Below, in pieces: positions 21,350 to 51,881 of a stretch of DNA of 64,000 nt (position 1 is its first letter; every line of letters starts with the position of its first letter). The notes beneath the pieces are model-generated. The model was not told the DNA's origin, ran no database searches, and saw only the letters and a list, made by a program, of their open reading frames with translations. This stretch comes from Candidatus Omnitrophota bacterium (GTDB lineage Bacteria; Omnitrophota; Gorgyraeia; Zapsychrales; Zapsychraceae): the NCBI GenBank assembly GCA_029261055.1, contig JAJDCA010000065.1:9581-73580 (forward strand), given 5' to 3'. A program made the translations under genes and the position numbers.

Positions 21350-22168
21350 TTAATCCACAATTACCACTTCTGTTCCCATAGGAACTAAACTGTACAACTC
21401 TTCTACCTGTTCATTATGCATACGCACACAGCCAGCCGTAACCTGCTGACCTATCGTTTCCGGCTCAACGGTTCCATGAATACCATATCCAGGTATGTTA
21501 AATCCAAGCCAGCGGCTTCCCAACACATTACTGGGACTTTCCGGCGGCACAACGATTCCCCTATTAAACCAAACAGGATCTTTTAATTTAGTTGAAACCT
21601 TAAATGTCCCGACAGGCGTAATATTATTTTCCCCCGTTGAAACATTATATACTTTAACAACCTCTTCACCGTCTTTCAAAATAAGAATATTCTGAGATTT
21701 ATCGACATAAATATTAAACGTACCCGTCCAAATACGAAGTTTTCGGCCGATACGAATAATATTATTTTTAAGGTTATTGTTAATTTTAATAAGTTCAATG
21801 GTGGTATTATATTTCTTTGCTAGCTTTCCCAGAGTATCGCCACTCACAACATCATGCATCACAGTTTGCGACGTTGGGGTATTGGAAAAAATAATTTTAA
21901 GATTAAGTGCTTCCAGCTCTTTTTGAACAGACTCGACATGCTCATAATCAGAATATTCTGTAAGGATTTTCTGATACGCTTCTTTCGTTTTCACCACATC
22001 TCCATCCTCAATCAAAGCGGCAGCTTGAGTGTAAAGCTCTTGGGCTGTAACTTCCTGTTCCGGCGTAACCTCAACGGCTTCTTGAGTTTTTCGTCCTGAT
22101 AACCCTACCCAAATAAAAACACCTAAAAGTACGACAGCTCCACCAATCAAAATTTTTCTATTATTCAT
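21350..22168 (-). CDS. LysM domain L,D-transpeptidase (YkuD family)
   Basis: N-terminal TM/signal, a LysM motif (VVSGDTLGKLAKKYNTTIELIKINN), and the catalytic HGT...GCVRM motif. Confidence 0.8.
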   Translation of the reverse strand: MNNRKILIGGAVVLLGVFIWVGLSGRKTQEAVEVTPEQEVTAQELYTQAAALIEDGDVVKTKEAYQKILTEYSDYEHVESVQKELEALNLKIIFSNTPTSQTVMHDVVSGDTLGKLAKKYNTTIELIKINNNLKNNIIRIGRKLRIWTGTFNIYVDKSQNILILKDGEEVVKVYNVSTGENNITPVGTFKVSTKLKDPVWFNRGIVVPPESPSNVLGSRWLGFNIPGYGIHGTVEPETIGQQVTAGCVRMHNEQVEELYSLVPMGTEVVIVD

Positions 22169-22275
22169 GAACTAATCTCCTAAATTTAGAATTTCCAGCC
22201 GTATAGGAAAGTATAAAACTTTCCTATCAGCACCAAAAATCGCCTCAAGTTATCGTTGTAGGCGATTTTCTTGCC

Positions 22276-22719
22276 TCACCAAGCTCGATAAAAAATCCAT
22301 GCCAAGCCAATCCCTAAAAAACCACCGATAATAACCTGCAAAGGGGAATGCCCTATAAGCTCCATAAGACGATCTCCTTCAAGCTTTCCTTTCCAATAAA
22401 TGTCATCCAATACCTGATTAAGGATAGCCGCCTGTTGACCAGCACACCGTCGAACTCCTTGAGCATCAAACATCGTTACAATCGCAAAAACCGTAGCCAA
22501 AGCAAACACGACAGATTGAAAACCTTCCTGCAAACCGCAGCTGGTAGCCAAAGCCGTAGCTCCGGCGGCATGACTGGATGGCATCCCTCCAGTTCCAATA
22601 AACCACTTAAAATTGAATCGCTTCTCACGAAAAACCCCTAAAACAACCTTCAATCCCTGAGCAATCGCCCAAACGGACATCGTAATAAGCAATATTTTAT
22701 TCTGAAAAATCGCGTTCAT
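22276..22719 (-). CDS. divergent PAP2-family membrane protein (DUF212)
   Basis: 147 aa with TM helices and a PSSHAA phosphatase-like motif. Confidence 0.7.
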   Translation of the reverse strand: MNAIFQNKILLITMSVWAIAQGLKVVLGVFREKRFNFKWFIGTGGMPSSHAAGATALATSCGLQEGFQSVVFALATVFAIVTMFDAQGVRRCAGQQAAILNQVLDDIYWKGKLEGDRLMELIGHSPLQVIIGGFLGIGLAWIFYRAW

Positions 22720-22853
22720 TGCCCACCATTATAATCGGCGACTTTGAAAATGCAAGGGGTTTTGAAGGTAGGTATTCCATAAATTTTAATATTATATTTC
22801 GAAAAAGAATAGATCACATTTATGTGTCATTGATAAAAACCCCCCTCAGAAAT

Positions 22854-23375
22854 TTATCTAGCATGAAATCCAATAGATCCTTTAGATTTCGTAGGTGGCT
22901 CTAGCAGGCGCTTGATCGCTTCGAAAACAATTTGGAATTGGTGATCATATTTTTTCTCCATCTTTTCAATCTTCTCACGCAAGTCGCGGTGCTCGATCAT
23001 CAGTTCACGGAGTTTTGCGAAGGTGCGCATGATTTGAATATTGACCTGAATAGCTCGCTTACTGTTGAGTACACTGGAAAGCATGAGAATACCATACTCT
23101 GTAAAGGCATAGGGTAATTTGCGTGGGCCTCCCCAACTTGAAGTGCCAAAATGGCACTTCAAGTTTGCAACCTCTTGTTGTGTAAGGGGTAATAAGAAAT
23201 CTACTGGAAACCGATCTTTATTACGGCGTACCTGTCGTGTTAAATGTTTTGTTTCCACACCATAAAGCTCTGCCAAATCTTTATCTAACATGACCTTCCT
23301 CCCACGAATCAACAAAATTTTGTTTTGGATGATTTCTTCGGGAACTATTTTGGTTATTATTTTCTTTGTTGTCAT
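22854..23375 (-). CDS. ORF6N-domain (KilA-N-related) protein, paralog A
   Basis: N-terminal LIRGRKVMLDKDLAELYGVETKHLTRQVRRNKDRFPVDF matches the ORF6N domain, with a C-terminal coiled coil. It contains a perfect 13+3+13 palindrome at 23136-23164. Confidence 0.7.
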   Translation of the reverse strand: MTTKKIITKIVPEEIIQNKILLIRGRKVMLDKDLAELYGVETKHLTRQVRRNKDRFPVDFLLPLTQQEVANLKCHFGTSSWGGPRKLPYAFTEYGILMLSSVLNSKRAIQVNIQIMRTFAKLRELMIEHRDLREKIEKMEKKYDHQFQIVFEAIKRLLEPPTKSKGSIGFHAR

Positions 23376-23408
23376 TTTTTAATCCTTTCATAAATTATTT
23401 AGCATCAC

Positions 23409-24968
23409 TCACCGCCCCCAGCTTCGATCCAGACTCCGATACTGTATCGCCTCGGCGATGTGGTCGGGTTGGATGCTTGATTGACCGTCCAAATCGGCAA
23501 TCGTGCGGGCGACTTTGAGGATTTTGTCGTGGGCACGGGCGGAAAGGGTGAGTTCATCAATAGCTCTCCTGAGCAAATCTTTGCCTTCATCAGTCAAGGC
23601 ACAATGTGTCCGAATTCTTTTTTGATTTAAATGGGCATTTGTAAATATTTTCTCTGGTGGTGCCAAAAGATTAATTTCGTCTTGAGATCTTTTTTGCTGA
23701 ACCTCACGCGCCGCAACAGTTCTCTTTTTGATAGCTGCCGAAGCCTCTCCTCTATTACCGACAGTCATTAATTCCACAGACTTCAGCGAAGGTACTTCTA
23801 AATGAATATCAATACGATCAAGCAAAGGGCCGGATATTTTGGACATATAGCGTTGAATTTGATTAGGATTGCAATGACACTCTTTCGCTGGATCTGAATA
23901 CCAACCACACGGACAAGGATTCATCGTCGCAATCAGCATAAAACGTGAAGGAAAACGAACGGTTTGGCTGGCACGAGAAATAGTTACCTGATGATCTTCT
24001 AAAGGCTGCCGTAAAGATTCCAATACATTGCGGCTAAACTCAGGCAATTCATCCAAAAACAAAATCCCATTATGCGCCAACGTCACTTCACCCGGCCGGG
24101 GCATTGACCCGCCGCCAACCAAAGCCACATCGGAACTTGTATGATGCGGTGAACGAAAAGGACGCTGATGAATAATCCCACGATTAGCCTGTACCAATCC
24201 CACCACTGAATGAATTTTAGTAGTTTCCAGAGCCTCATCGAGTATCATATCAGGCAATATCGTCAACATCCGTCTGGCAAGCATGGTCTTACCGCTTCCC
24301 GGAGGGCCTATCAAAAGAACATTGTGTCCTCCAGCCGCTGCAATTTCCAAACCCCGTTTAACATGCGCCTGCCCTTTAACCTCGGAAAAATCTGTATCGT
24401 AAAAATTAACCTTATTCCACAAAGATTCCATATTAACTTTAAAAGGCTCAATAATCGTAGGGTTTTGAAAAAAATACACGACTTCGTTGAGCGTCTTCGC
24501 CGGATAAACGGAAACATTCTTAGTCACAGCCGCCTCTGCAGCATTAGCCAATGGAAGAATCATTCCTTGAAATTGATCTGTTTCAAGAGACATGGTAATA
24601 GGCAAAACCCCTTTTATGGGTTGAATACGTCCATCTAAAGAAAGCTCACCCAATAGGACATAATTTTTCAAAGGCGTAATATCAATTTGTTCACTGGCTG
24701 CAAGAATCCCCAAAGCGATCGCTAAATCAAAAGAAGGCCCTTCCTTTTTAACATCCGCCGGAGAAAGGTTCACCGTAATCCGTCCCATTGGAAAATCGTA
24801 ACCACTATTCTTAATCGCCGAACGTACCCTCTCCTTACTTTCCCGCACCGCACTGTCTGGCAAACCTACAATATGCACACATGGCAATCCCCGCGACACA
24901 TGCACCTCAATAATAATCGGATAGGCATCCAATCCGGCAATACTATAACTACATACTTTGGCTAACAT
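23409..24968 (-). CDS. comM: YifB/ComM-family Mg-chelatase-like AAA+ ATPase
   Basis: 519 aa with an N-terminal Lon-like domain, Walker A GPPGSGKT, sensor motifs, a Cys cluster CPCGWYSD..CHC and a C-terminal Mg_chelatase_C region. Confidence 0.9.
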   Translation of the reverse strand: MLAKVCSYSIAGLDAYPIIIEVHVSRGLPCVHIVGLPDSAVRESKERVRSAIKNSGYDFPMGRITVNLSPADVKKEGPSFDLAIALGILAASEQIDITPLKNYVLLGELSLDGRIQPIKGVLPITMSLETDQFQGMILPLANAAEAAVTKNVSVYPAKTLNEVVYFFQNPTIIEPFKVNMESLWNKVNFYDTDFSEVKGQAHVKRGLEIAAAGGHNVLLIGPPGSGKTMLARRMLTILPDMILDEALETTKIHSVVGLVQANRGIIHQRPFRSPHHTSSDVALVGGGSMPRPGEVTLAHNGILFLDELPEFSRNVLESLRQPLEDHQVTISRASQTVRFPSRFMLIATMNPCPCGWYSDPAKECHCNPNQIQRYMSKISGPLLDRIDIHLEVPSLKSVELMTVGNRGEASAAIKKRTVAAREVQQKRSQDEINLLAPPEKIFTNAHLNQKRIRTHCALTDEGKDLLRRAIDELTLSARAHDKILKVARTIADLDGQSSIQPDHIAEAIQYRSLDRSWGR

Positions 24969-25522
24969 TATTTGCTCTCCTTTTTAGTCCTCGGGGGATG
25001 AAATCCAATAAGTTTCTTACGCTTTACCGGGGGATCGATTAAGCATTTGATTGCATCAAAAACTACTTTGAATTGATAATCATATTTTTCCTCCATCACT
25101 TCGATCTTTCGCTTCAAATCTTTATGAGTTACCATCAACTCTCTAAACTTTACGAATGTTTTCATGATTTGAATATTGACCTGAATAGCTCGCTTGCTAT
25201 TTAAAACACTTGAACGCATCAGGATGCCGTGTTCCGTGAAGGCAGATGGAAGTTTACGCGTACCTCCCCAACTTGAAGTCACAAATTGTGACTTCAAGTT
25301 TGAAACCTCTTCCCTTGTAAGAAGAAACATAAATTCGACTGGAAACCGACCCTGATTACGTTTTACAGCTTGATTAAGTACTTTTGTATCAACACCATAA
25401 AGTATTGCTAAATCTTTATCCAACATGACTTTCTGCCCTCTTATGAATAGAATCTTAATTTCTATCATGTCTTGAGCAACAACACTTGCAAAAGTATTTT
25501 TCTCTTTAACCATACAGATCAT
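24968..25522 (-). CDS. ORF6N-domain (KilA-N-related) protein, paralog B
   Basis: FIRGQKVMLDKDLAILYGVDTKVLNQAVKRNQGRFPVEF. It shares identical 30-nt blocks with paralog A at the DNA level and contains the equivalent palindrome at 25268-25296. Confidence 0.7.
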   Translation of the reverse strand: MICMVKEKNTFASVVAQDMIEIKILFIRGQKVMLDKDLAILYGVDTKVLNQAVKRNQGRFPVEFMFLLTREEVSNLKSQFVTSSWGGTRKLPSAFTEHGILMRSSVLNSKRAIQVNIQIMKTFVKFRELMVTHKDLKRKIEVMEEKYDYQFKVVFDAIKCLIDPPVKRKKLIGFHPPRTKKESK

Positions 25523-25667
25523 TCCTTTCTCTAAATTATTGGGGAAATCAAAAAATCAGTGGGGATGTATTCTTGGGGAATTGTGCTGCTTATTGGGGAA
25601 TGTTGATGCTTAACTTATCATACTCGATAATGCGCGTCAACCTGTTCGACAATCTCAAGGTTTACTC

Positions 25668-27293
25668 TTAGTCCAAAGGCAATTCGATAATTACTTCTGT
25701 TCCGGAACCCTCTTCACTTTTCACACTGATTTTACCACGATGATTTTCCATAATTCCTTGTGCAATGGACAAACCCAACCCCGTATGCCCTTCTTTTAAA
25801 CTAAAAAAAGGATCAAATATTTTAAGAAGTTCTTTCGCATCTATACCACAGCCTGTATCTTTGAATATGATTTGAAAAAAACCACCACCTTCTTTAACTT
25901 CAATCCAAAGCTTTTCATTATGCTCCATTGCCTCAACAGAATTCATAATAATATTCAAAAAAGCCTGCCGTATCTGATTAGAATCAATATGCAGGATAAT
26001 GTTCTTATTCATTTCAAAATTCTTAGAAATTTGAATATTTCGTTCAAAAAAATTACTTTTTAACAAATCAATAGTATCATTCAATAATTTAAGAACATCT
26101 GTATCATCCATAGAAGGCGGCGCCGGATGACTGTAATCTTTAAGAAGTTCAATCAAATTATTAATTTTACTCACTTCGCTTTCATGAATTTTGGCAAATT
26201 TCTTTAAAAATTCTTTATCATCTAATTTATTGGGTAAATGATATCCATAGGCTTTCAATGATGTAAGAGGATTTTTTATACCCTCAACAATATTGGCAAT
26301 TAAAGTAGCTAATGTTTTATACCGATCCGTCTGGGACACTTCTTGAAGAAGAAGCTCATTTTCTTCGGCAATCTCAGATTGCGTGCCTTTGTAAAATAGT
26401 TTATCAACAAAATGCTGAATCCGATTCCTTACCGGAATAATCATCATTCCGATGATAAGAGCCGCTCCGATAGAACCCAATATGGTCGTGTAACCTAAAA
26501 CACCTTGCGATAGCCGTTCGAAAAAAATAACCAAAACCAAAAGCGTTAAATAGATACAGCTAATTAATAATGAATACCCAAGACTTTTTTTAACAATAAT
26601 ACTCATATTAAACAGACGATGACGAACCATCGCATATCCCATAATCACTGGATAAAACCCTATTAAGAAATTAGACCATGGATAAATATTTCCGCCAAAA
26701 TAAATAAAAAAGTTACCCTGCCCACCAATCCATCCCACAATAGAAGCAGTAATAAAATATCGCATTTGTTGATGTCTTAACCCCGTAGATTGTTGTAAAT
26801 ACTTCAACATCAAATAAAATGCATACAAAAAAAGCAGTCCATAAAATCCAACAAAAAAAGTCAACCAAAGTGGGCTTTTATGCACCGGCCAATCAACCAC
26901 ATAAAATTGACCAAATGCAAATCTGAGATCGCCTAAAAATAATTCTCTGGCAAAAAAATTGTAAAAAAGAAAAACCCCACCTAAGGTATACAAAATGGCC
27001 AACACATAATCTTTTTTTATTTGTAAAAATGAAAAAACAAAATGAACATACAGTGGTGGAATAAATATTTTGGCAATATACGCAATTTGATACCAAAAGA
27101 AGGCCTTTTCTTTAACGTTTGTTGTCGCAATTTGATACCCACAAAAACCCCAAAGAGCTACCAATAAACTAATCCAACCAAAAATCGTTGTGACCCTTTT
27201 CCCGCTACCTTTTAAAAAAACAAATATCGTCATGATTAAAGTAGAAATCAAAACACATAATGACGATATGGCAAATGGATTGAGTTGTGACAT
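25668..27293 (-). CDS. orphan sensor histidine-kinase-like protein with a 7TM-type N-terminal domain and a degenerate H-box
   Basis: About 9 N-terminal TM helices and a central coiled coil. The HisKA-like box reads VEGIKNPL where AHEIKNPL is expected. The HATPase_c N, G1, F and G2 boxes are intact (NIIMNSVEAM, DTGCGI, FDPFFS, GLGLSIAQ). No response regulator lies nearby. Confidence 0.75.
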   Translation of the reverse strand: MSQLNPFAISSLCVLISTLIMTIFVFLKGSGKRVTTIFGWISLLVALWGFCGYQIATTNVKEKAFFWYQIAYIAKIFIPPLYVHFVFSFLQIKKDYVLAILYTLGGVFLFYNFFARELFLGDLRFAFGQFYVVDWPVHKSPLWLTFFVGFYGLLFLYAFYLMLKYLQQSTGLRHQQMRYFITASIVGWIGGQGNFFIYFGGNIYPWSNFLIGFYPVIMGYAMVRHRLFNMSIIVKKSLGYSLLISCIYLTLLVLVIFFERLSQGVLGYTTILGSIGAALIIGMMIIPVRNRIQHFVDKLFYKGTQSEIAEENELLLQEVSQTDRYKTLATLIANIVEGIKNPLTSLKAYGYHLPNKLDDKEFLKKFAKIHESEVSKINNLIELLKDYSHPAPPSMDDTDVLKLLNDTIDLLKSNFFERNIQISKNFEMNKNIILHIDSNQIRQAFLNIIMNSVEAMEHNEKLWIEVKEGGGFFQIIFKDTGCGIDAKELLKIFDPFFSLKEGHTGLGLSIAQGIMENHRGKISVKSEEGSGTEVIIELPLD

Positions 27294-27454: not shown

Positions 27455-28291
27455 TTATTTATTTTTTCTCGCACGATGCTTCGCCTTCAACCCCTTCCGC
27501 TGGTGATTAACATTTTTACGTATTTGTTGCTTAGCCTCCCGCTGAGATGAACCAGGATTATTCGCCCGATATTTATCCGCGCCACTTTTAAACTTTTCTC
27601 GCTTTCCCTGACGATTATCTCGGCGATCTTGACGTTTTTCTTGACGATTTTCACGATTCTCGCTCCGATTTCCCTGACGATCATCTCGCCGATCTTGACG
27701 TCTTTCCTGACGACCTTCTCGATTTTCACTCCGATTTCCCTGACGATTATCTTGGCGATCTTGACGTCTTTCCTGACGGCCTTCTCGATTTTCACTCCGA
27801 TTCCCCTGACGATCATCTCGGCGATCTTGACGTCTTTCCTGACGACCTTCTCGATTTTCACTCCGATTCCCCTGACGATCATCTCGGCGATCTTGACGTC
27901 TTTCCTGACGGCCTTCTCGATTTTCACTCCGATTTCCCTGACGATCATCTCGACGATCTTGACGTCTTTCCTGACGGTCATCTCGATGTTCTTGCCTTTT
28001 TTCCTGACGGTCTTCCTTATTACCTTGTTTATGCTCTTTAGCCTCTTCTTTAAAACCTTTCATCTTTTCACGAATTTCTTCAGGGGACAACCCTTGATCT
28101 TTATACTCTTCAATGGATGATTTCCTTCTGGATTGAAAATCACTCCACCACTGCTTATTTTCTTCTTGTTCCTGATCTCTATACTCTCTAAATTCTGATC
28201 TCGAATCTACCTCACCCGTAGAATCTTCTTGCGCCCAAACAGCAGGTACTAATACGATACTTAGAAGTACTACTAGTGTTAGCTTATTCAT
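27455..28291 (-). CDS. secreted highly charged tandem-repeat protein (about five 22-aa REGRQERRQDRRDDRQGNRSEN units)
   Basis: Signal peptide MNKLTLVVLLSIVLVPAVWAQ, followed by an R/Q/D/E/N-rich low-complexity body. The repeats are encoded by a 66-bp tandem array. Confidence 0.6.
   Translation of the reverse strand: MNKLTLVVLLSIVLVPAVWAQEDSTGEVDSRSEFREYRDQEQEENKQWWSDFQSRRKSSIEEYKDQGLSPEEIREKMKGFKEEAKEHKQGNKEDRQEKRQEHRDDRQERRQDRRDDRQGNRSENREGRQERRQDRRDDRQGNRSENREGRQERRQDRRDDRQGNRSENREGRQERRQDRQDNRQGNRSENREGRQERRQDRRDDRQGNRSENRENRQEKRQDRRDNRQGKREKFKSGADKYRANNPGSSQREAKQQIRKNVNHQRKGLKAKHRARKNK
27597..27990. repeat. 66-bp tandem DNA repeat, about 6 copies, inside the repeat-protein CDS
   Basis: The unit start CTCGATTTTCAC recurs at 27717, 27783, 27849 and 27915 with an exact 66-bp period. 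It generates the spurious overlapping ORFs 27487..27981(-) and 27629..28120(+). Confidence 0.8.
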
Positions 28292-51635: not shown

Positions 51636-51881
51636 TTGACCCCCAAAATTTTTCTTAAAACGTTACGAGGTGTTGCGATGCTTCTACGCAACACCGACAA
51701 AAACGCAACACCACCCATTTCAACAATTATTTTCTTCACATCTTTTCCCATACCTAATCCCCACTAATTTGATTCTTCTCTTTAAATTCTCTTTTAAAAT
51801 TTGCAAGGGAGGTGGCAATTTGCCTCCACCCTTTTAATAATTTATTTTTATTGTCCATCTTTAATTACCCCTATTTACACC

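Follow-up and report, generated by a model that had tools for sequence, protein, structure and literature searches.

A palindrome inside ORF6N genes as the probable DNA site of the proteins that they encode

What keeps a perfect palindrome in place within a protein-coding gene, when two paralogs hold it in different sequence and at the price of different amino acids? This question is raised by a 64,000-nucleotide stretch of a Candidatus Omnitrophota contig (JAJDCA010000065.1, positions 9,581 to 73,580; hereafter the window), in which two genes for proteins of the ORF6N family each carry such an element inside the reading frame. A first-pass annotation of this DNA had proposed that selection acts here on the nucleic acid rather than on the protein, and had offered a DNA-binding site, an RNA hairpin or a recombination site as the thing selected. 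From a comparison across the ORF6N family, we consider it probable that each ORF6N protein has its cognate DNA site, double-stranded and two-fold symmetric, in the palindrome of its own gene. The two palindromes and their genes are listed below, with positions counted from the first letter of the window.

23135-23165: palindrome A, AACTTGAAGTGCCA-AAA-TGGCACTTCAAGTT on the plus strand; 14+3+14, arms 100% complementary; R class (TGCCA..TGGCA)
25270-25300: palindrome B, AACTTGAAGTCACAA-A-TTGTGACTTCAAGTT; 15+1+15; Q class (TCACA..TGTGA)
22854-23375, minus strand: ORF6N paralog A, 173 amino acids; ORF6N domain followed by long C-terminal helices; Pfam PF10543, E 1.3e-31
24968-25522, minus strand: ORF6N paralog B, 184 amino acids; its stop codon overlaps the start of yifB; Pfam PF10543, E 7.5e-33

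Both proteins give full-length matches to the Pfam ORF6N domain (PF10543), with scores of 109.2 bits for A and 113.1 bits for B against a gathering cut-off of 27.8, and their closest relatives are Omnitrophota entries. On the sense strand palindrome A reads AAC TTG AAG TGC CAT TTT GGC ACT TCA AGT T and encodes NLKCHFGTSSW, and palindrome B reads AAC TTG AAG TCA CAA TTT GTG ACT TCA AGT T and encodes NLKSQFVTSSW. The two differ at arm positions 11-12 (GC in A, CA in B), a difference that is mirrored exactly at positions 20-21 (GC in A, TG in B), and at one centre base. They are the two longest perfect close inverted repeats of the window, the next perfect one having arms of 11 nt. Hairpins predicted for A and B have energies of -15.4 and -14.1 kcal/mol as DNA and of -21.8 and -20.3 kcal/mol as RNA, with z-scores of -5.8 to -6.9, and none of 200 shuffled sequences folded equally well. 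Features of an intrinsic terminator are absent at both window palindromes: the stem is followed by GGGGAGG or TGCAACC, and there is no T-run on either strand.

The first-pass annotation had described both elements as perfect palindromes of 13+3+13. Copy A is indeed perfect and extends one pair further than claimed. Copy B is perfect as well, but it had been placed at 25268-25296, some 3 nt below the true position of the 13+3+13 core, 25271-25299. The mirrored arm difference (GC/GC versus CA/TG) had been described exactly, and so had the peptides, NLKCHFGTSS versus NLKSQFVTSS.

Conservation of the palindrome across the ORF6N family

The ORF6N family is very large, with at least 8000 significant relatives in a protein search, and members 53-77% identical were found in Omnitrophota, Nitrospirota, Planctomycetota, Bacteroidota, Chloroflexota and other phyla. 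We took the homologous 11 codons from 180 unique homologs and scored a fixed 31-nt register as 15 Watson-Crick pairs. The mean was 12.85 of 15 pairs; 31 homologs were perfect, 37 had 14 pairs and 55 had 13, so that 69% had at least 13. When synonymous codons were resampled with the amino acids kept, the expectation was 6.18 +/- 1.84 pairs, and 13 or more were reached in 0.02% of trials (P = 2e-4). A scan of the same register along the coding sequence gave 12.8 pairs at the palindrome, 7.6 at the second-best place and a median of 3.8, with no other place standing out. The collapse of synonymous entropy is likewise limited to codons 75-84, synonymous sites elsewhere being saturated. Codon choice within the palindrome is correspondingly skewed relative to the pooled codons: TTG makes up 86% of Leu codons (22% pooled), GTG 94% of Val codons (26% pooled) and TCA 88% of Ser codons (26% pooled).

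The two arms also change together. Among 150 sequences, 89.9% of cells were paired, as compared to 75.0 +/- 0.5% after shuffling and 23-42% with slid partners, and changes on both sides were seen in 12 of the 14 pairs (296 cells, with 92 expected). In some cases the compensating partner is synonymous, for example where Lys AAG becomes Arg AGG together with Thr ACT becoming ACC; in others the compensation is costly, as where Leu TTG becomes Trp TGG together with a change from Ser to Asn. Parsimony on a neighbour-joining tree counts at least 228 switches between Watson-Crick pairs, a figure that is only indicative because the tree is poorly resolved. Furthermore, homologs of 33-50% identity, found on plasmids of Legionella, Bacteroides, Segatella, Treponema and Butyrivibrio and on viral contigs, keep a palindrome at the same codons, and both its sequence and the encoded peptide differ there (for example GAGGTTATCAAAAAATTTGATAACCTC, encoding EVIKKFDNL, and GGTGGTCGCAAACTGCGACCACC, encoding EVVANCDHL). 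The proposal that selection acts on the nucleic acid and that the protein pays for it is therefore upheld by family-wide pairing in which 12 of 14 pairs change on both sides, synonymous sites included. Random variation at these positions, or absence of the palindrome from homologs, is clearly not what the 180 homologs display.

We also considered whether a mobile palindrome had been inserted in frame into the gene. This was rejected, as homologs with weak palindromes have equal length and the motif at the same place. Two local peculiarities of these genes may be recorded here. In a Bacteroides ovatus homolog (locus L164, about 2690-2760) a local motif duplication, ...CLRSQIATLEKGADDETNLRSQTVTSRWGG..., puts the palindrome region twice into one reading frame. 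In the window, the two paralogs are only 68% identical overall and share a 33-nt identical run, AAGCGAGCTATTCAGGTCAATATTCAAATCATG, encoding KRAIQVNIQIM (23028-23060 and 25163-25195). Since the synonymous sites of this run are free across the family, it was rejected as a second nucleotide-level element, and it looks like local gene conversion between the two copies.

Covariation of the palindrome with a predicted recognition helix

All protein columns were scored against the dinucleotide class at palindrome positions 11-12 (CA 78, GC 35, CG 32, TC 24). With residues numbered as in copy B, the bias-corrected mutual information with class was 1.41 bits for residue 51 and 1.10 bits for residue 48, of a class entropy of 2.05 bits. 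These two columns score as high as residues 78 and 81, which positions 11-12 themselves encode. Residues 52 (0.49 bits) and 50 (0.40 bits) are weaker, and all other columns stay below 0.2 bits, even those of residues 57-72, a highly variable segment separating the helix from the palindrome. The columns singled out in this way belong to a predicted recognition helix, encoded in the window as follows.

23220-23252, minus strand: predicted recognition-helix codons of copy A, TKHLTRQVRRN, in which H, R and Q correspond to copy-B positions 48, 51 and 52; from translation and covariation with palindrome class
25355-25387, minus strand: predicted recognition-helix codons of copy B, TKVLNQAVKRN, residues 46-56, with V48, Q51, A52 and R55; from translation, AlphaFold2 helix 46-55 and covariation

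In the AlphaFold2 model, again in copy B numbering, helix 46-55 follows helix 35-42 in a helix-turn-helix-like arrangement, with a predicted local distance difference test score (pLDDT) of 76-83 over residues 21-80. Long C-terminal helices span residues 110-162, and the palindrome-encoded residues 75-92 form a helix end and a low-confidence loop. A sequence search against solved structures gave no match.

The class of the palindrome follows the residues of this helix closely. Q51 (with V, A or T at 48 and A52) goes with TCACA..TGTGA (CA/TG) in 73 of 79 cases, E51 (with R48 and Q52) with TCGCA..TGCGA (CG/CG) in 32 of 33, and K51 (with N or D at 48) with TTCCA..TGGAA (TC/GA) in 17 of 21. R51 (with Q, Y or H at 48 and Q52) goes with TGCCA..TGGCA (GC/GC) in 28 of 44, plus near variants. 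Other positions are tied to other residues. Across subfamilies, Arg at the equivalent of R55 is accompanied by C:G at the third pair in 195 of 196 cases, and Asn or His there by A:T in 21 of 24. Palindrome positions 8-9 covary with residue 47 and more weakly with residue 90, and the centre covaries only with its own codons. In general, amino acids contacting DNA show preferences of Arg for G, of Gln and Asn for A and of Glu for C, and the class pairings agree with these preferences.

The classes are not clades, as identity over the rest of the protein is 0.608 within and 0.599 between classes, and the nearest neighbour is of the same class in just 70 of 161 cases. Indeed, pairs that are 82-89% identical elsewhere can differ in class, with helix and palindrome switched together (L156 and L138; the co-resident paralogs of L061 and of L082). 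To judge from the compared sequences, the coupling is not an intraprotein contact either, because the rules for Q51 and E51 persist in distant subfamilies (Q51 with CA in 18 of 18, E51/R48 with CG in 7 of 7) where the bases encode other residues (VKNFD, VENFD, LRSKNLIA, VANCD). In the window's own subfamily, TCA and TCG, which distinguish the Q from the E class at residue 78, are synonymous.

Within this scheme copy B (TKVLNQAVKRN; TCACA) belongs to the Q class, the most frequent one in the family, and copy A (TKHLTRQVRRN; TGCCA) to the R class. The 'compensated' two-base difference of the window is best read as a putative specificity switch carried out in both half-sites. Its cost in amino acids, from B to A, is S78C and V81G, plus Q79H at the centre. 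Among co-resident paralogs generally, 3 of 23 pairs share the residue-51 class where 6.9 would be expected (P = 0.053), and 24 of 24 pairs differ at no fewer than 4 arm positions.

Noncoding copies and rival explanations

Each locus was scanned for its gene's own 23-nt core to find copies outside the genes; the family consensus of the site is YTTGAnnTCnCAAnTTGnGAnnTCAAR. We found 61 noncoding copies within 500 nt upstream, distributed over 35 of about 165 loci and peaking 0-100 nt before the start of the match, beside the ribosome-binding site. They often stand 2-4 side by side, and a few lie directly after the stop codon or between tandem genes. The noncoding copies are 89% paired and have the conserved and the variable positions of the coding copy, and 52 of the 61 belong to the four dinucleotide classes. 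Over 838 kb, near-perfect palindromes of the same geometry number 246, made up of about 162 internal ones, 43 in the 400 nt upstream and about 40 in other places, roughly half of the latter being again of family type. The upstream copies are situated between putative promoters and the ribosome-binding site; for example, sigma70-like promoters are predicted, from consensus matches only, just upstream of the arrays in L060 and L138. No terminator-like match was found at upstream copies. In L060, L138 and L001 an upstream copy either equals the internal site or has rare variants in common with it, and in the distant subfamilies of L170, L166 and L222 the unusual variant of the gene recurs in an upstream or downstream copy.

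Arrays of 2-4 adjacent noncoding palindromes of differing classes stand before a single ORF6N gene in L060 (2917-2970), L143 (2843-2900 and 2955-2981), L138 (1130-1315) and L079 (2850-2955). Such mixed-class arrays would fit cross-regulation among paralogs of differing class, although the downstream gene's class is not over-represented in them. One further palindrome of the window, AAGGGAGGTGGCAATTTGCCTCCACCCTTTT at 51806-51832, was considered as an ORF6N site and rejected: its centre, GCAATTTGC, is family-like, its stem is imperfect and GC-rich, T's follow, and it is intergenic, with miaB on one side and a small downstream gene on the other. We take it for a probable bidirectional terminator of the ordinary kind.

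Several features of the copies fit a two-fold symmetric site in duplex DNA better than an RNA or a single-strand hairpin. An odd, single-base centre is kept in coding and noncoding copies, even without coding constraint. The centre measures 1 nt in 28 and 3 nt in 12 of the 57 perfect upstream stems of at least 9 bp, and only one even-centred copy is family-like. No hairpin could form the innermost pair, and yet of the 61 noncoding copies 41 have A..T there and none has T..A. Centre triplets are strand-symmetric: ATT and AAT occur 58 and 56 times in coding copies, AAT and ATT 21 and 20 times and GAT and ATC 3 times each in noncoding copies, and TTT and AAA both occur. At the protein level, QF, QI, HF and QN are flips of one DNA centre. 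Finally, on the sense strand of coding copies there are 72 G.T against 90 A.C mismatches, so wobble pairing is not favoured. Of the options named in the first-pass annotation, the DNA site is thus supported, through its covariation with residues 48 and 51 and its noncoding copies upstream, while the RNA hairpin is disfavoured by the wobble counts and the strand-symmetric centres. Conservation most likely concerns the two half-sites, whose identity would be read by identical subunits, rather than base pairing itself.

A stem-loop in the ORF6N mRNA, lying in the reading frame and in the leaders and controlling its translation, stability or processing, perhaps as an RNA operator to which a protein binds, would draw on the very stable RNA hairpin predicted (-20 to -22 kcal/mol, z about -6), on noncoding copies that would be transcribed, and on a slight, non-significant excess of G.T over A.C in these copies (29 versus 17, or 19 versus 13 without the outermost pair). 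We hold it to be very improbable all the same, since the coding copies lack wobble enrichment, the loop triplets are equally frequent in both orientations, which is unexpected for a strand-specific RNA, and the coupling to a helix-turn-helix-like recognition helix follows the amino acid-base preferences of duplex DNA. There is no Rfam family match either: a scan of 22000-26500 at E <= 10 returned three chance-level matches, none of them at the palindromes. Selection for intrastrand pairing could instead act on a hairpin or cruciform in single-stranded or supercoiled DNA, serving as a structure signal for replication, recombination or mobility of ORF6N, for instance as a rearrangement breakpoint or in the spread of ORF6N genes in the manner of cassettes. 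Perfect Watson-Crick stems, an AT-rich centre of 1-3 nt and a predicted DNA hairpin of -14 to -15 kcal/mol are consistent with such a structure, as are the covariation of variable positions in noncoding copies too, the very diverse contexts of ORF6N genes and their tandem arrays of varying copy number. A few truncated fragments, too, have an end close to the palindrome: the L072 fragment stops at residue 76 and the L153 fragment begins at residue 86. Perfect palindromes also survive in the decayed copies of L125, and of the 13 annotated plasmid loci retrieved, which hold distant homologs, 5 have a tyrosine integrase adjoining ORF6N. However, a DNA hairpin leaves unexplained the near-deterministic coupling of stem bases to residues 48 and 51. 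It is also at odds with a symmetry that reaches the innermost pair in a sequence-specific manner, with a loop length that is essentially fixed in noncoding copies as well, with a centre too short for the core site of a tyrosine recombinase, and with the confinement of the copies to ORF6N genes and their flanks, none being found elsewhere in the window. We regard this explanation as unlikely.

Two further explanations concern the origin of the arms and the identity of the reader. Intrastrand template switching could homogenise the arms and leave a functionless by-product whose substitutions the protein tolerates. The process is known to create and maintain perfect stems with one-step 'compensatory' changes (PMC8794818) and to alter coding sequences and invert spacers (PMC8604942). 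The perfect Watson-Crick arms, the centre found in both orientations, the multi-nucleotide differences (GC/GC versus CA/TG) that fit a one-step conversion, and the perfect palindromes kept by the decayed gene copies of L125 all agree with it. Yet template switching cannot account for a single palindromic place in one family across phyla, down to 33% identity, nor for the conserved positions in noncoding copies or their clustering just upstream of start codons, and above all not for arm bases that track residues 48, 51 and 55. As the whole explanation it is the most improbable of those considered here, and it is best seen as a possible mutational route, by which both arms could be altered together in one step, and not as the cause. 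Alternatively, another factor, either a host protein or a partner encoded elsewhere, might bind the site, with the covariation reflecting contacts of residues 48 and 51 with residues 78 and 81. The latter are encoded by the covarying bases, so coupling at the protein level is formally possible in the window's subfamily, and the upstream copies are not matched to the class of the downstream gene beyond chance. Against this stand the persistence of the rules in distant subfamilies with different residues and codon context, and the synonymous difference between the Q and E classes at residue 78. Moreover, across many phyla no gene other than ORF6N is shared by every site-bearing locus, and we therefore regard a different binding factor as quite unlikely.

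A number of observations weigh against a cognate ORF6N site and temper our confidence in it. The AlphaFold2 model is mediocre overall (mean pLDDT 63.8), and Foldseek of the model against the PDB gave weak winged-helix-like matches only (Ski/Dachshund, MarR; E > 0.1), which we did not use as evidence of fold; because of this, it is chiefly covariation that justifies calling residues 46-56 a 'recognition helix'. The rules are less strict for the R51 and K51 classes than for Q51 and E51. Near-perfect symmetry over 13-15 bp per arm goes beyond that of many operators, so that there may be a contribution from hairpins or cruciforms, or from template switching that homogenises the arms. Similarity over the whole site between an upstream copy and its own gene's internal site is weakly raised over permuted pairs (P = 0.0055), and the class of the upstream copy equals that of the downstream gene in 17 of 37 cases, with 14.4 +/- 2.4 expected (P = 0.19). 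Upstream and internal sites are not spaced with a consistent helical phase (p = 0.73 at 10.5 bp, about 0.02 at 10 and 11 bp), and no noncoding copy of the site was found within the 64-kb window.

Recombination and mobility deserve a separate remark, as a recombination site had been among the first suggestions. For this option there is anecdotal support alone, in a few truncated genes whose ends fall close to the palindrome, and the palindrome as a rearrangement breakpoint was set aside for the same reason, only a handful of fragments being in its favour. Decayed or truncated ORF6N copies were noted in L125 (200-1250), L015 (2564-3007), L072 (5224-5310), L153 (910-1176) and L071 (4244-4501). 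In L125 the palindromes of two frameshifted copies still pair at 12 of 12 positions, and that of the intact gene at 10 of 12. The core site of a tyrosine or serine recombinase, with its asymmetric spacer of 6-8 bp or 2 bp and its conserved sequence, was rejected since the centre here is 1-3 nt, odd and present in both orientations and the arms covary. A mobile palindrome of the REP/RAYT (repetitive extragenic palindrome and its transposase) or attC type was rejected as well: apart from yifB and a few syntenic genes no neighbour recurs, the stems have a fixed geometry and no imperfections, and the copies are confined to ORF6N and its flanks.

Proposed mechanism, known systems and genomic context

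In the mechanism that we propose for a cognate site, the ORF6N protein would bind as a dimer by means of its long C-terminal helices. The helix of each subunit (residues 46-56 of copy B) would enter the major groove of one half-site, where residues 47, 48, 51, 52 and 55 would read the bases 3-8 positions off centre. Because identical subunits would read both half-sites, a change of specificity would be needed in both arms, which would give rise to the 'compensated' pattern, and because the site sits in codons 75-85, the same change would also alter residues 78 and 81. The role of the site would probably be negative autoregulation, with the bound protein acting as a roadblock at +223..+253 of its own reading frame. 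In other loci, extra copies between promoter and start codon would add to autoregulation and may let paralogs regulate each other. The window also holds a third gene of the cluster.

23409-24968, minus strand: gene for a yifB/comM-type Mg-chelatase-like AAA+ ATPase; Pfam Mg_chelatase, E 7.4e-98; TIGR00368, 656.7 bits

This gene lies between the two ORF6N genes and all three are co-oriented. Read along the minus strand, B comes first, its stop overlapping the start of yifB, and A follows yifB after 33 nt; occupied internal sites could thus act on downstream operon genes too. We treat yifB as context and assign it no role in the proposed mechanism.

The comparative evidence supports a binding site strongly, and from it we infer physical binding, dimerisation and repression of the gene by its own product. 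Evenly balanced, in our judgement, is the wider proposal that ORF6N proteins are 'self-addressed' regulators. Codons 75-85 of their own DNA-binding domain would then hold the operator of their own class, and the family would comprise at least four mutually distinct helix/operator classes, found side by side in tandem arrays and with cross-wiring by way of noncoding copies. As the DNA site evolves, it would force replacements at residues 78 (S/C/F) and 81 (V/A/G), so that a cis-element would shape its own trans-factor across phyla, plasmids and phages, possibly within a phage-defence module (PDC-S05).

If this is true, a simple recognition code, relating residues 48, 51 and 55 to bases 3-5 of each half-site, would be available for a very large uncharacterised family whose members are now annotated merely as 'ORF6N domain', 'anti-repressor' or the defence candidate PDC-S05. 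It would also be a case of extreme dual coding, in which a regulatory site is conserved in the coding sequence of its own reader and overrides both synonymous and amino-acid choice. A caution follows for the calling of structured RNAs, as base-pair-like covariation can stem from two-fold recognition by a protein and not from folding. In addition, four naturally distinct pairs of small protein and operator could serve as orthogonal parts.

Intragenic operators are well known, for example lac O2 inside lacZ, gal OI inside galE and the purR operator inside purR. Like these, the ORF6N palindrome would be a site for a dimeric regulator within coding sequence, downstream of the promoter, and many ORF6N homologs have further upstream copies that may likewise be promoter-proximal. 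What appears to set it apart is its place, family-wide and across phyla, in the regulator's own domain-coding region, where it constrains synonymous sites and dictates two amino acids, and its diversification into at least four classes that switch together with the presumed reading helix; helical phasing of a kind that would point to looping was also not found. In lambdoid immunity regions and in the LacI and TetR families, operator and repressor form specificity classes in which recognition-helix residues and both half-sites change together and co-resident paralogs tend to differ, as they do here. In ORF6N genes, by contrast, the operator would lie in the regulator's own codons, so that specificity and protein change are mechanically linked at residues 78 and 81. 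Another comparison is with the parS sites of ParB/Spo0J, which are 16 bp long and nearly invariant across bacteria and of which one is located within spo0J itself. They resemble the present case in that a DNA-binding protein of helix-turn-helix type has a conserved palindrome in its own gene and that gene and site travel together. ORF6N is unrelated to ParB, however, and its site is about 27-31 bp long, has an odd centre and is diversified into classes, and unlike for parS there is no evidence for spreading or partition. REP elements with their RAYT transposases (Y1/HUH) and integron attC sites, which have strand-marking bulges or extrahelical bases, are also short palindromes that are repeated in the flanks of a particular gene and sometimes clustered. 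ORF6N loci differ from both, with no Y1/HUH transposase or integron integrase and with copies that are perfect, of fixed geometry and free of bulges, one of them always inside the reading frame.

Replication template switching has been described as creating and maintaining inverted repeats, with effects on coding sequence and on sites of dimeric transcription factors (PMC8794818, PMC8604942, PMC13100816). The likeness to our palindromes extends to perfect arms, multi-base 'compensatory' changes and both spacer orientations; those works concern a mutational process, to which the ORF6N site adds evidence for selection and for a cognate reader. A literature search on palindromes or operators of ORF6N, KilA-N and Bro-N and on PDC-S05 found no description of this element. 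Both window proteins match PHROG families named 'anti-repressor' and the PADLOC profile of PDC-S05 (PDLC04856; E 5.2e-55 for paralog A and 1.5e-55 for paralog B). PDC-S05 is a candidate single-gene anti-phage system, to which the window genes would belong by profile match. According to a preprint, one PDC-S05 representative gives about 1000-fold protection against T7 and T5 (10.1101/2024.09.26.614923); it is described with a RhuM domain, in which it differs from the window proteins.

Outside the window, ORF6N lies near a co-oriented yifB/comM gene in 15 of 163 loci (L001, L002, L006, L018, L024, L026, L057, L081, L082, L093, L107, L123, L127, L128, L130), directly abutting it in 12. In these loci there are 0-3 ORF6N copies upstream and 0-2 downstream, the copy number varying at the same position. 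Further neighbours of ORF6N were noted for five plasmid loci (L164, L171, L175, L176, L178) and for L168. In Bacteroides and Parabacteroides ORF6N stands beside ArdA, accompanied in Bacteroides by JAB, and in Treponema it is flanked by the methylase and the specificity-subunit genes of a type I restriction system. Just upstream of the start of copy B, in the 145-nt gap that separates it from a histidine-kinase gene, the window has four direct repeats at 25539-25600 (TTGGGGAA three times and GTGGGGAT once, starting at 25539, 25559, 25573 and 25593), which may be a binding site of another regulator or a promoter element. Further along, at 27455-28291 on the minus strand, an open reading frame encodes a highly repetitive charged protein with many tandem units like RQERRQDRRDDRQGNRSENREG, and repeat-derived open reading frames overlap there on both strands.

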